Assembly (NCBI GenBank): GCA_963622135.1
Contig: CAVFGR010000008.1
Location: forward strand, 150,218-214,217
Source: a bacterium
GTDB taxonomy: Bacteria > Bacillota_I > Bacilli_A > RFN20 > CAG-826
Direction: 5' to 3'
DNA length: 64,000 nucleotides
Part shown: positions 26,271-35,197 of the stretch, in pieces
Numbering within the stretch: position 1 is the stretch's first letter
How the letters are laid out: each line of letters starts with the position of its first letter
Position numbers and translations under genes: made by a program
The notes under the pieces: model-generated
What the model was told of the DNA's origin: nothing
What the model saw: the letters and a program-made list of their open reading frames with translations, nothing else
Databases searched by the model: none

Positions 26271-26921
26271 TTATTTAGACGACTTAGTTTTATTTTTGAC
26301 TCTCTTCCAAAAAGCCAAGAGCAAGAATATGCCTTGGATAGGGATTCCCGCTAAGATCACATACCAAACATTCATGTGTTCCCAGGTCTGGAAGTGAAGC
26401 AAGAAGGTGATGATAACAAGCCACATCGAAGTTGAAGCAAAGCCGAACGTCACCCATTTATTGGAAAAGAAGAATTTCGACATGATGGCTTCGATAGCGA
26501 GAGCTAAGGATACAGCCCAAAGCATGATGAGCCAATAATGACCTTGATCGCCATAAGGCTTATTAATGAAATCCGAAATAAGGATAAGACCGCCAGCCAG
26601 CACAATCGTCAAAGCGATGATGGTCATAAGGATTATCTTGTTGCGTTTGATGGCAAATCTCTTTTTGCTATGCATCTCATCATTGATGAGGGCGGTGATG
26701 TCTTCCTCGTTCTGCGGGGTGCAAAGATAATCGACGGTGACGCCGTAATATTGAGCCAAATCCAAAAGGATATCGACGGTTGGCAAAGCGTATCCGTTTT
26801 CCCATTTGGAAATGGACTTATCCGAATAATGTATTTCATCGGCAAGCTGAATTTGGGTCATTCCCTTGGCTTTGCGAAGGGTAACCAAGTTCTTACCGAC
26901 AATCTCTGATAAAGTTTCCAT
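26271..26921 (-). CDS. membrane-bound XRE-family transcriptional regulator (N-terminal HTH plus C-terminal 4-TM domain)
   Basis: HTH_XRE signature LRKAKGMTQIQLADEIHYSDKSISKWENG followed by four hydrophobic helices. Confidence 0.7.
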   Translation of the reverse strand: METLSEIVGKNLVTLRKAKGMTQIQLADEIHYSDKSISKWENGYALPTVDILLDLAQYYGVTVDYLCTPQNEEDITALINDEMHSKKRFAIKRNKIILMTIIALTIVLAGGLILISDFINKPYGDQGHYWLIMLWAVSLALAIEAIMSKFFFSNKWVTFGFASTSMWLVIITFLLHFQTWEHMNVWYVILAGIPIQGIFLLLAFWKRVKNKTKSSK

Positions 26922-26969
26922 AGTGCCCTTATCCTAATAGATGAGGGACGATTTTGAAACAATAAATTA

Positions 26970-29900
26970 TTATAGGTGGTTGCTCGGAGTTGGGTTCAAT
27001 GGCAAGGAAGAATAACTGGAAGCAAGGGTCACCGAGCCGTCCGAATTAACAGTTAAGAAGTTATCTTGGAAGAAAGAGTTATTGCTTATCGAATGGAATT
27101 GGGTCTCATAGTAATCAGTGGTAACGAACAAGACCTTCTTGGTGGTGTGATTGATGTTATAAGGCACTTCAATCGAATCATCCCAGCAATAGTAATAATC
27201 AGGCGAGAAGTTGGTGATTTCGGCGCTGAAAGTGACATTGATGACATTGGCAATGCTGATAGCCTCCCTGGTCTTAGCGCTGTTAAAGAGTTTCTTGCCG
27301 TTGGCGTAAGTTCCGCCCAAAGCCAATTTGATGTCACCAATAACGGAATTATGTAACAAAGCGGCGGTGTGTAAATCCAAGTTCCAAACTGGGTTATTTA
27401 AATCATTGTTGAAAGAGAATCCGGTAATGAGATCTTCGCCGTGCAAAGACTGGCTGGAACTAGAAGAGGAACTGCTATCAATAAGATTGAGGACGGTATT
27501 ATTCAAACCAAAAATGTCTTTGGTAATGTATCCCATGATGTCAGATTTAAAGCCTTCGACGTCGAGCCTTGTTTGATAATGGTAGTCATTATCGGTTTGG
27601 CTCTTACCCTTATCGCCATAGTCATCCCAACGATCGATTAAGAACAAACCATCGTTATTTCCAGAAGTGTGATATAAGAAATTGATGTAACGGGTGCCGC
27701 TCTTTGTCAACGACCTCGAGTTAAGGACGCCATTGATAGGCAAGTTTACATAAGCGGCTATACGAATATCCGCACCTTCAACCCTGACAAAGACTTTGAA
27801 GTTAATGACGACATCGCTCAAAACCGGCAAATCGGCTTCAGCCGTTCCTTCAATCTTATAAGCCGAACGGATGACGGACTTGCCGCTCGAAGTGGTAACC
27901 CTATCGCCAGCCAAGAACATATTGACTGCATATTCGGCGAAGGTTTTTAAAGAAGAATAGTTGACAAAGGCGCTGATATCGGTGATGTTCGGCCAGTTCA
28001 TTTCCTGCATTTCGTAACCTAAAACATCGATTTTGAAATAGATGTCAGACACCCCAATGGCCATTTCGAGTTCGATCGATTCGATATCCCCGCCGACAAT
28101 ACGACCATCTTCTCTCGTGACGTCGTTTGCGTAATTGACGGTGATTTTCATGTCGGATTCGCCACCAATTAAGGTAGCTGGCAATTCGAAGACATCCTGT
28201 CTATCACCTAAAGTGATATAGGTAATCAAATCAGACCCCAAGACCTTGTAATATTGTCCGGTGATCATATCGCCGATGACCGAATTGATGAACAAGTCGG
28301 TGATAAGGCTGATGATGCGTTCCATACGTGGGTCATTGGAAGAGAATAAGGTCTTAAAGACATCAACGAAGCCCGAAACAGAATGCATCGCGAATCTCGC
28401 TTTCAAAGGAGTATCGCTTTCCGGCGCGGTCCTATTTTCAGAAGACGGGTATGTTCCGTTGTTCTTCGAATCGTATTGGAAAAGCATCCATTGGGTGCTT
28501 GGATTGGAAGAAGAATAGACTTCCTCATCAGTTTGGGTGGAATCCCCATTCTCGTCCTTCGGTTCTTTGCCGGTGATATCAAATTTCACGTTATGGTCGT
28601 TGACATAGGATTCTTTACGGTCGACGACGGTGATGGCGCCGGTGCTTTGATTGGTGTTCTTATTTATACCGACGTCTCCCGAGAAAGAGAAACCCTGATA
28701 GTTAGGAACGGAGGTCTTATTTCCAATCGTCGTTTGGGTGATGACCGAAGTGGTGTCTCTAGTTAAAACATAGCCTTCCAAACCCAATTTGATTTGTTTG
28801 GTATCGGAAATCTTCACGAACTGATCGGATAAAGATTCAAGGTGTCTGAGCTCTTTATATTGGGCTTTTTCTTCATCGGTCATCGGCGTCCTCTCATATG
28901 GGATGACGTCGATTTCGCCCGAAATGGAGAACGGTTCGACGGTGACGTTATCAAATTTGACGTAGCCAACTGAAACATTGGAACTATCGCCAATCAAATC
29001 AAGAGTGATGGTTCCCTTCATGCCAAAGACCGACAAATCCAAAGTGATGACGACGTTATCGGTTGATCCTTTGAAAGTCGTGATGGCCCCCATAATATCT
29101 TCGTAGTTGCCATCCTTGACATTGCCTAGGCCTTCGGAATTCTTAACGGCATTGATGGCATCGGTCAACGCGCCTCCTAAAGCGGCCAAACCACCGCCTG
29201 ATTTGTTTTTCTTAGAAGAGCTATCTCCTCCGTTCATCAAATCCTTCAAGGATCCCATAATGGAATCGATGACCGTTTTGGAGGTTTTGGCTTTCTGCAA
29301 ATCATTGATGGCGGCGTACACCTCATCGAAAGCGTCCGTCGGAGAACCATTGATCATCATATTGATGATTTGATGCAATCCGGCGAAGGAATAATCAACA
29401 TCGGCATATATGGATTCGAGATTGTTGTCGGTGACATCGATATCGGCACGCAAGGAAAGATACGCTTCCTCGTTGATTTCCGTGGTGTTGAAGAAAACGC
29501 CATCGCCTTCAAAAGCCTCTTCCTGGTGTTTCAATAACAAACCACTTCCGCGCGTAACGACGGAGAATTTTTGAGCGTTCGCATAATCGATGACCTTATC
29601 CCAAATCGCCATGGAATCGACCAAGCTCGTGTATCCGCTGGCATCTTCCGGCGCGGAGATATTAACGGTTTCGTTCCCGCTATCAAGACTGACAGAGGCT
29701 CTGATTTTCGTATCGGAGGAAATCTCGTAATAGCCGCCTTGGACTTTGCTCGGGAAATCGATGCCCGTCCATTGGTAACTGCCCTTTTCGGCTTTTAAGC
29801 CAAGATTGAAGGTCTTATCTCCGATAGGGAGGTTCCAAACAAAATAAGGATTCCCATCCAACGTCCCTTTTTCCATATTTTCCATGGATTCGAGGACGGC

Positions 29901-34232: not shown

Positions 34233-34267
34233 AAAAACTCCTGTTCTTTTATGATTTCGCTAATTTA

Positions 34268-35197
34268 TTACAATTCCTCAGGATACTCGAACTTAGCGTG
34301 AAGTTCGGGTATTGTCTCCGTTCCATCGGAAGCGTAAACGGTTTTAAGGCGGCTATTGGCAGGGGAACCAATTCCGCTAGATAAGGTCGCCACATATCCT
34401 TCGTAAACCACCATGCTCTTCGGGAAGAGGTCCGTGGCATCCATCGTCACAATGAGGTGGACATACGAGAATGTTGGCGGGGCGATTAGGTCGGACATCG
34501 TTTTCATTTGCTGGCCGTAATAACAGACAGTCTTTGCGGTGTCCAATTCGACATCAACCACTATCTCGTCTCCGTTTTTCACCGCTCGGGTGGTCTGCAA
34601 CCCCAATGTGGTGTTGTTTACTTTCCCGTAAATGACGGTCTTATCAGAAACGATGTAGCGGAGGCTTCTGGATACATTCGAACCCATCAGCTCACGATAT
34701 TCGGCATTGGTGACGGTGTTTGGGGTGTATTTATCCCAATCCGCATCCTTGCCCCAATAACAGAGGGTGTTATCAGAATCTTCCCAGAAACGGTTGTTAA
34801 GTTTGACGAGGTTTGAGTAAGAAGATTGCTCCTCGAAGAACTTGTCCCCATCCTTAACGAAGTAACCCAAGACGGTCTGATCGACATTGAGACCCAATGT
34901 AGAAGCGATGGAATAGCCAACCGTCATGGCATGGTGCTTTTCCTTGCTGTCATAGACTTTGTAGCTGCAATTGATGAGCTCATCGGGTGTCATGCTGTTG
35001 ACGAAGTTGCCACTAGGCTTAGCAGCTTGGTATTTCTTCCAAGCAGCATCGATATCAGCCTCGTAGTCTTTGCCATTCAAGCCTTCAGTGATAGTGATGT
35101 CCGGCTTAAGTTCTTTGGCAAGGAAAACGCCGACGCCAGCGCCGGCTCCAGCAGCAGCGACGCTGCCAATGATGCCAATTATCAAGCCTTTCTTCAT
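34268..35197 (-). CDS. N-terminally membrane-anchored extracytoplasmic protein (309 aa), hypothetical; first gene of the giant-protein operon
   Basis: N-terminal TM helix LIIGIIGSVAAAGAGAGVGVFLA. It ends 35 bp upstream of paralog B on the same strand. Confidence 0.6.
   Translation of the reverse strand: MKKGLIIGIIGSVAAAGAGAGVGVFLAKELKPDITITEGLNGKDYEADIDAAWKKYQAAKPSGNFVNSMTPDELINCSYKVYDSKEKHHAMTVGYSIASTLGLNVDQTVLGYFVKDGDKFFEEQSSYSNLVKLNNRFWEDSDNTLCYWGKDADWDKYTPNTVTNAEYRELMGSNVSRSLRYIVSDKTVIYGKVNNTTLGLQTTRAVKNGDEIVVDVELDTAKTVCYYGQQMKTMSDLIAPPTFSYVHLIVTMDATDLFPKSMVVYEGYVATLSSGIGSPANSRLKTVYASDGTETIPELHAKFEYPEEL

Follow-up and report, generated by a model that had tools for sequence, protein, structure and literature searches.

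A conserved giant surface-protein cassette encoded with a BcrR-like membrane-bound XRE regulator in an uncultured gut bacterium

Carriers and sensors of hydrophobic ligands such as LolA/LolB, LprG/LppX and RseB are single-domain proteins of ~180-290 aa, and the hydrophobic ligands bound by known members of the LolA fold include acyl chains, lipoglycans and carotenoids. Extracytoplasmic proteins may also serve membrane-bound regulators as co-sensors, as VtrC does for VtrA, ToxS for ToxR and RseB for RseA. Gauntlett et al. 2008 reportedly described a different type of membrane regulator, BcrR, in which an XRE-type helix-turn-helix (HTH) domain is followed by four transmembrane (TM) helices and which senses bacitracin directly. 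Here we describe a minus-strand locus in a 64,000-nt stretch of contig CAVFGR010000008.1 (hereafter the window, with positions counted from its first letter) that combines features of these systems: it encodes a small tethered protein, two paralogous surface proteins of ~1200 aa (giants A and B) and a membrane-bound XRE regulator. With moderate confidence, we infer that the locus is a self-regulated surface operon whose products handle hydrophobic molecules.

The four-gene cassette and its conservation

The four minus-strand open reading frames (ORFs) listed by the first-pass annotation of this DNA (309, 1207, 1194 and 216 aa) were all recovered exactly where it had placed them. Gene 1 (34268-35197) encodes the 309-aa protein, in which a single N-terminal TM segment (residues 6-24 by hydropathy) anchors an extracytoplasmic domain of ~280 aa. 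The giants come next in the direction of transcription: gene 2 (30609-34232; giant A, 1207 aa) has an N-terminal signal anchor at about residues 15-37, likewise by hydropathy, and a very acidic ectodomain, and gene 3 (26970-30554; giant B) encodes a 1194-aa lipoprotein with the lipobox LLSSC (Cys25). Gene 4 (26271-26921) encodes a 216-aa protein with an XRE HTH domain (residues ~5-68) and four predicted TM helices, which resembles one-component TM transcription regulators of the BcrR type. Hydropathy, the lipobox and a Pfam HTH_3 match confirmed the anchors and the four-TM XRE regulator that had been read from the letters alone.

The intergenic gaps measure 35, 54 and 48 nt. A pattern scan found no U-tailed terminator in any gap between the four genes, and the few terminator-like hairpins that it detected on the operon strand fall inside coding regions. 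A terminator-like hairpin with a 10-bp stem containing 6 GC pairs, followed by CTTTCGTTAT, lies 3' of the XRE gene (26220-26242, minus strand) and faces the 3' end of the enolase gene; it likely marks the 3' end of the transcription unit. In two distant relatives (L007 and L008), there is a 4-nt overlap between the B and XRE genes. Given the short gaps, the lack of a terminator in them and this overlap, the four genes most likely form one operon in this genome, which supports the proposed operon-like unit of three extracytoplasmic tethered proteins and a membrane-bound XRE regulator.

Genomic contexts of relatives were fetched and annotated with family hidden Markov models. In every locus examined, a homologue of the small protein is encoded immediately upstream of the giant, and even the homologue from a distant branch (L014) is recognized with an hhalign probability of 100% (E 1e-38); the 309-aa protein is the most conserved structural component of the cassette. 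The XRE/four-TM regulator gene adjoins the small and giant genes in most loci, which fall into three layouts. Layout I (small-A-B-XRE) occurs in the window clade and in L007, L010/L011, L019 and L020; layout II (small-A / XRE / B) in L009, L012, L013, L017, L021 and L036; and layout III, in which the XRE gene is divergent from the small gene and a single giant, in L022, L023, L025 and L028-L035. Shared flanks were found only in the window clade, whose cassettes are bordered by enolase, uracil-DNA glycosylase and ThiT genes at one end and by a pyridoxal-kinase-like gene at the opposite end; in other clades the flanking genes differ. Since the cassette is kept while the flanks differ, the association appears to be functional and not leftover synteny. 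The link between regulator and surface proteins, noted at the outset in a single genome, is thus conserved across distant lineages together with a conserved operator, and the cassette has probably been inherited vertically.

The recovered loci come from gut (including human-gut), rumen and other metagenome contigs. The host of the window is itself gut-associated and uncultured, has a GC content of ~45%, uses the standard code with long ORFs in translation table 11 and encodes many lipoproteins; Rfam and tRNA scans of the window gave no match. Contigs that carry the same syntenic block at 72-86% identity (e.g. L003, CAVBUY010000002.1) are labelled Alistipes shahii, Oscillospiraceae, Eubacteriales, Staphylococcaceae or simply 'bacterium', so at least some taxon labels of these metagenome-assembled genomes are wrong. 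At one locus only (L015), a PAP2-family phosphatase gene (4111-4785) lies directly downstream of a distant giant homologue.

The regulator, its candidate operator and the transcript

The gene 4 product matches Pfam HTH_3 (E 4e-16) and HTH_19 (E 1.4e-10), and four hydropathy peaks (residues 96-114, 130-148, 157-175 and 185-203) predict TM helices in a pattern that is kept across 22 regulator homologues. No NCBIfam model reaches its cut-off and PADLOC gives generic HTH matches only; a tblastn search of the regulator against plasmids returns annotated bcrR genes. Pairwise alignment with BcrR of Clostridium perfringens covers 157 aa at 29% identity (E 2e-14; residues 8-155) and passes through the linker into TM1-TM2, with the signal coming mostly from the HTH domain. 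The regulator has almost no extracytoplasmic loops, and in its TM part N, W, P, S and G-P-Q positions are conserved at a level of at least 85% among the homologues, which argues for a role of the membrane domain beyond anchoring. Calling a membrane-embedded regulator unusual, as the first-pass annotation did, overstates the case: 50,302 TM transcription regulators have been counted across 9,673 genomes, with BcrR listed as a characterised precedent (PMC10269533). The architecture of the regulator is therefore not exotic, and the distinctive part is its target.

Upstream of gene 1 lies a candidate operator (35282-35309, minus strand), in which a degenerate copy of a family palindrome overlaps a perfect GAGAAT-N4-ATTCTC (35297-35282) that is unique in the window. 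A few bases behind the family consensus, TTCTCCAAATCGGAGAA (TTCTCC-N5-GGAGAA), comes a second inverted repeat (yTTTCy-N5-7-rGAAAr or variants of it), and this upstream motif is common to loci whose giants share only 22-34% identity. When at most one mismatch is allowed, 20 of 30 loci have TTCTC-N5-7-GAGAA ahead of the small gene, while the remainder of the same loci predicts 0.07 occurrences per scanned window; the loci are phylogenetically related, and the counts overstate their independence. The remaining loci carry recognisable variants of the palindrome, for example ACTCTCC-N5-GGAGAGT. In layout II, an intrinsic terminator closes gene A and the second giant is transcribed from its own promoter; the composite site recurs before this second giant in 5/5 loci and is followed by TATAAT. 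In layout III, the palindrome sits in the intergenic region common to the small gene and the divergent regulator gene. The recognition helix, YSDKSISKWE, is identical in 14 of the 14 regulators of layouts I and II and is altered (YTDRA-SKWE, YSDKTVSKWE) in clades with differing palindromes, so that operator variants track recognition-helix changes. No further operator copy was found elsewhere in the window. This comparative evidence argues strongly that the palindrome pair is the operator to which the regulator would bind.

Comparison with BcrR of Enterococcus faecalis and C. perfringens revealed similarities at several levels. Both regulators place four TM helices behind an N-terminal XRE HTH domain in a short protein (~205-215 aa), and in both cases the regulator gene adjoins the target operon. 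The bcrR-bcrA intergenic region carries two GACA-N7-TGTC repeats, and here TCTC-N7-GAGA is followed by a second inverted repeat; in each case two inverted repeats lie side by side, their short arms spaced by about one helical turn. However, the half-site is GACA/TGTC for BcrR and TTCTC/GAGAA in the cassette, and the cassette regulator gene sits at the 3' end of its operon. The targets also differ, being an ATP-binding cassette (ABC) exporter and an undecaprenyl-diphosphatase (bcrABD) in one case and giant surface proteins in the other; neither an ABC transporter nor an undecaprenyl-diphosphatase gene is present within the cassette. On sequence grounds, the gene 4 product thus resembles a BcrR-like one-component TM transcription regulator.

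Between operator and start codon, a TAGAG(A/T) box (35258-35263, minus strand) lies 46 nt downstream of the palindrome start, a spacing found in nine of ten aligned loci (45 nt in the tenth); the box could be a -10-like element or another half-site for the regulator. The leader then contains a repeat, AAAGTAT-N4-ATACTTT (35247-35230, minus strand), which holds a TATACT -10-like hexamer, and a hairpin, CCAACCC-aa-GGGTTGG (35226-35211, minus strand), which closely precedes the Shine-Dalgarno sequence. The window clade keeps both elements, with compensatory changes in the arms of the hairpin (GCC/GGC in L002 and L003, GCTCG/CGAGC in L008). In a layout II locus, L012, the same promoter region holds a second, more distal operator-like palindrome (TTCTCCTTCGTAGAA, near 6870), ~170 nt ahead of the small gene. 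The promoter/operator region of the window (35198-35470) is shared with a divergent plus-strand unit of three genes (35471-37442) encoding a 125-aa protein, a 273-aa protein without a Pfam match and a pyridoxal/phosphomethylpyrimidine-kinase-like protein, an arrangement kept in the window clade only.

A hairpin with a 10-bp stem, a UUCG loop and no U-tract separates genes A and B (30569-30592, minus strand; AGGGUGCUCC-UUCG-GGGGCACCCU on the mRNA strand). The stem-loop reported here at the first reading therefore exists, but it lies 4 nt away from the position given (30565-30588) and is stronger than the 7-bp stem described. The surrounding 76-nt segment has a minimum free energy of -22.5 kcal/mol (z -3.5), and none of 200 shuffled sequences was as stable. 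The hairpin is present in 6/6 window-clade loci (-21 to -28.5 kcal/mol), which keep the basal stem GGGUGC/GCACCC (with a G-U pair in L001, L002 and L003) and vary in the upper stem and loop with pairing preserved; it is absent from distant layout I loci, where the spacer measures 9-23 nt. A classical terminator was rejected for want of a U-tail, and a dispersed element of the repetitive extragenic palindromic (REP) type because the motif is unique in the window. Lacking a U-tract, the hairpin most likely acts on mRNA stability or processing, as an intercistronic element particular to this clade.

The imperfect palindrome that had been noted just upstream of the XRE gene is real, one nucleotide from its reported position (26926-26947, minus strand; 7/8 positions complementary), and forms a weak hairpin (-9.5 kcal/mol) overlapping the ribosome-binding site of that gene. 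A role for it as a conserved promoter or operator did not hold: a pattern scan found no promoter-like site there, and the palindrome is not conserved in register among relatives and is absent where the B and XRE genes overlap (L007 and L008). With neither a consensus promoter nor conservation, a conserved promoter/operator was rejected, and the palindrome is probably a minor clade-specific translational feature. Giant B has no obvious Shine-Dalgarno sequence. A 25-nt inverted repeat, 84% complementary, would pair its start-codon region (30539-30563) with its own lipobox codons (30473-30497); this may reflect chance (Lys versus Leu/Ser codons) or a translational control element.

The giant proteins, the small protein and predicted folds

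The giants align by BLASTP over ~1100 residues with 25% identity and 46% positives (E 4e-73). The similarity is collinear and not confined to low-complexity sequence, so the paralogy and collinear blocks seen in the first-pass annotation stand, and an origin by duplication and divergence is supported. Judged by this alignment, A and B are ancient paralogues. Both are strongly acidic (net charge -109 for A and -73 for B), as is every member of the family, whose net charges span -31 to -116. A-type orthologues keep the signal anchor followed by an 'xPQ' motif, and most B-type orthologues keep the lipobox.

A sequence search among 5.8 billion proteins recovered only 12 relatives for A and 21 for B, and an exhaustive profile search recovered 299 cluster representatives (among 1.84 billion); none of these relatives bears a name. 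Scans with Pfam, NCBIfam and PADLOC found nothing for the window giants or the small protein, a Pfam scan of 28 giant and 13 small-protein homologues gave no match, and a PDB sequence search with the family profile returned nothing at E values up to 10. No enzymatic domain was recognised in the giants by the Pfam scan, and giant B had no match to plasmids by tblastn.

Giant B was modelled with AlphaFold2 using a 28-sequence family alignment, at a mean predicted local distance difference test score (pLDDT) of 75.5 and a predicted template-modelling score (pTM) of 0.53. The model features about four modules, each consisting of a helix followed by an antiparallel beta-sheet, with leading helices at residues 53-67, 313-326, 571-584 and 868-880. 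When the model was searched with Foldseek, the only matches with a probability above 0.6 were LolA (8cgm, 1.0), LolA3 (9tp6, 0.93) and a Staphylococcus aureus structure (4egd, 0.82); RseB, MucB and VtrC also appear in the fold matches of cassette proteins. The predicted model shows the unclosed antiparallel beta-barrel with a helical lid or plug that defines the LolA-like superfamily and resembles the LolA/LprG/LppX/RseB fold. A bridge-like lipid transport protein of the AsmA/TamB type was also considered and rejected, as the continuous beta-taco groove of that fold is missing from the model.

Profile comparison revealed an internal repeat in B (residues 311-568 versus 569-865; hhalign probability 91.5%, E 8.5e-7). 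Distant family members align only from position ~200-400 onward, which indicates that the three C-terminal modules form the conserved core. One distant member, P0111 (4042 aa), contains 12 stretches matching the family profile and eight CBM_5_12 chitin/carbohydrate-binding modules; the giant-type module has thus been reused in a much larger extracellular protein, and the fusion is consistent with an extracellular location of the giant family.

Homology of the small protein to the giants was considered and rejected (hhalign probability 0.2%). A model of the small protein built from a shallow alignment reached a pLDDT of 46, and its LprG-like fold matches, like the weak match to VtrC, can serve as leads only.

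Possible roles and comparison with known systems

We considered that the operon, running from ~35,310 to ~26,220 on the minus strand, would encode a cell-surface apparatus. Its three structural products would reside on the outer face of the cytoplasmic membrane, the 309-aa protein held by its N-terminal anchor, A by its signal anchor and B by a lipid anchor. The four-helix membrane domain of the regulator would sense a membrane-associated signal, and its XRE HTH would bind the inverted-repeat pair upstream of gene 1, presumably as a membrane-embedded dimer of dimers. The signal would adjust expression of the surface proteins and, in layout I, of the regulator itself, and in the window clade the A-B hairpin would set how strongly the small gene and A, upstream of it, are expressed relative to B and the regulator gene downstream. 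Judging from the predicted fold, the surface proteins may capture, shuttle or sequester lipids, acylated molecules or membrane-active compounds. DNA binding, the sensed signal, activation versus repression, ligand binding, complex formation and the role of the hairpin are all elements that we infer. A more specific version is doubtful but conceivable: strings of LolA/LprG-like modules and their small partner would extract lipids or other hydrophobic molecules and shuttle them between the environment and the cytoplasmic membrane of uncultivated gut Bacillota, with feedback from a BcrR-like sensor of membrane state. If true, monoderm cells would have in the cassette an equivalent of Lol/LprG-type trafficking, complete with a dedicated homeostat.

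Several observations weigh against these proposals. The palindrome copy in the window, TTCCATAATTTAGAGAA (35309-35293), has a degenerate left arm, and the core promoter is ambiguous, with TAGAGA (35263-35258) and TATACT (within 35236-35230) both candidate -10 elements; the relatedness of the loci also limits what the operator counts can say. Two loci (L024 and L026) carry a small-giant pair and an operator-like palindrome with no XRE/TM regulator on the fetched contig, and their regulator may be encoded elsewhere in those genomes. The fold match extends over ~150 residues at 5-12% identity and comes from a model with a pTM of 0.53. No curated LolA-type family in Pfam or NCBIfam matches the giants in sequence, and LolA-like half-barrels occur in non-carriers such as VioE and RseB.

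Antigenic or adhesive variation, the role first suggested for the giants, was not borne out. Large, surface-tethered, paralogous and acidic proteins without enzymatic domains could in principle be variable antigens or adhesins that switch to evade immunity or to change adhesion, and between species the giants are 48-85% identical, compared with 91-97% for enolase. However, the window holds no giant copies beyond A and B, and each of the two has a single conserved orthologue per locus. No tandem repeats, homopolymer (phase-variable) tracts or recombination cassettes were detected in the region, where only trivial 2-3-copy repeats of 19-25 nt occur, and no long inverted repeats flanking the promoter or other invertible elements were present. 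Comparison of 17 strain variants from different assemblies (A, seven; B, six; small protein, four) revealed equal lengths and near-identical sequences (99.0-100% identity, with 0-10 mostly conservative substitutions each). In four relatives, A and B are 85%, 65-75%, 64-72% and 48-50% identical to the window copies, a divergence that matches neighbouring membrane proteins and is far below that of the lipoprotein encoded at 38186-39937. Switching of the giants is thus highly improbable, and an antigenic variation locus is essentially excluded. The variable surface proteins of Mollicutes (Vsp, Vlp, P1/MgpB) are likewise large membrane- or lipid-anchored proteins of low-GC Gram-positive relatives, in which paralogy occurs; the cassette differs from them in having no multigene repertoire, repeats or switch elements and in its near-identity among strains. 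The gene at 38186-39937 (minus strand), which encodes a 583-aa lipoprotein (LTVSCG lipobox) without a Pfam match, is by far the fastest-evolving gene of the neighbourhood, with 54%, 51% and 47% identity in three relatives and no match in the fourth, compared with 80-97% for its flanking genes. If the neighbourhood encodes a variable surface antigen, this lipoprotein is more likely to be it than either giant.

Three further explanations keep the surface proteins invariant and assign them other tasks. A non-variable adhesin or envelope scaffold, acting as an acidic coat or binding host or dietary polymers, would make the half-barrel a generic fold without a role in lipid handling. The family-wide negative charge, the eight CBM_5_12 modules of the distant member, the lack of a Lol-type transporter in the cassette and the missing sequence-level LolA match all fit this explanation, which we regard as unlikely overall. 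Somewhat further from expectation, and quite unlikely, is an inducible protection module analogous to BcrR-BcrABD, in which the regulator detects a membrane-active compound and the acidic, hydrophobic-pocketed proteins sequester it. An antimicrobial peptide, a lipid II- or undecaprenyl-binding antibiotic and a bile acid are candidates for such a compound. The topology, similarity and operator geometry of the regulator match BcrR, strongly acidic giants would attract cationic peptides, and the loci come from gut and rumen metagenomes; yet there is no consistent transporter or phosphatase partner (a PAP2 gene stands beside one distant member only), and the cassette lies in a conserved core-genome context and not on mobile DNA, with no plasmid homologue. 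The surface proteins might instead be the sensory apparatus of the regulator, whose real targets would then lie elsewhere. In favour of this, the regulator has almost no extracytoplasmic loops, RseB, MucB and VtrC are among the fold matches, and regulator and surface proteins are strictly co-inherited. Against this, the operator precedes the surface-protein genes themselves, including both transcription units in layout II, no other operator copy exists in the window, and two 1200-aa proteins would be an unusually costly sensor; we consider a purely sensory function improbable. A self-regulated surface operon handling hydrophobic molecules therefore stays our preferred reading of the cassette.

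Elsewhere in the window, an oligopeptide ABC transporter (Opp) operon (42562-51577, minus strand) encodes unusually long components: its two ATPases have 450 and 639 aa, a permease has 537 aa and the binding lipoprotein 925 aa. These recall Mollicutes-type Opp proteins and may hint at the host lineage.

The giant and small-protein families are without Pfam, NCBIfam, PDB-sequence or literature annotation, and a literature search for LolA-like proteins in Mollicutes or Gram-positives found nothing. Their association with a cognate membrane regulator and a conserved, duplicated operator makes these 'hypothetical' surface proteins testable. If the LolA-like modules do carry lipids, the system would reveal the way in which hydrophobic molecules are handled at the surface of poorly known gut Bacillota.

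Among described systems, VtrA/VtrC and ToxR/ToxS share with the cassette a membrane-bound transcription factor encoded with an extracytoplasmic beta-rich partner. VtrA and ToxR, however, are single-pass proteins with an OmpR-type winged-helix domain and a partner-binding periplasmic domain, whereas the cassette regulator combines an XRE domain with four TM helices and lacks an ectodomain. Compared with LolA-like carriers, the giants have neither sequence-level family membership nor a LolCDE-type partner, and the cassette joins about four modules into 1200-aa polypeptides; it encodes two such paralogues and a conserved third protein. The TM XRE regulator and the LolA-like modules are of known kinds. 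The libraries and literature searched contain no description of the protein families, of the concatenated architecture or of the cassette as a whole. Lipid carriage by the modules would extend the BcrR paradigm, that of a membrane-bound XRE sensor, beyond antibiotic resistance.

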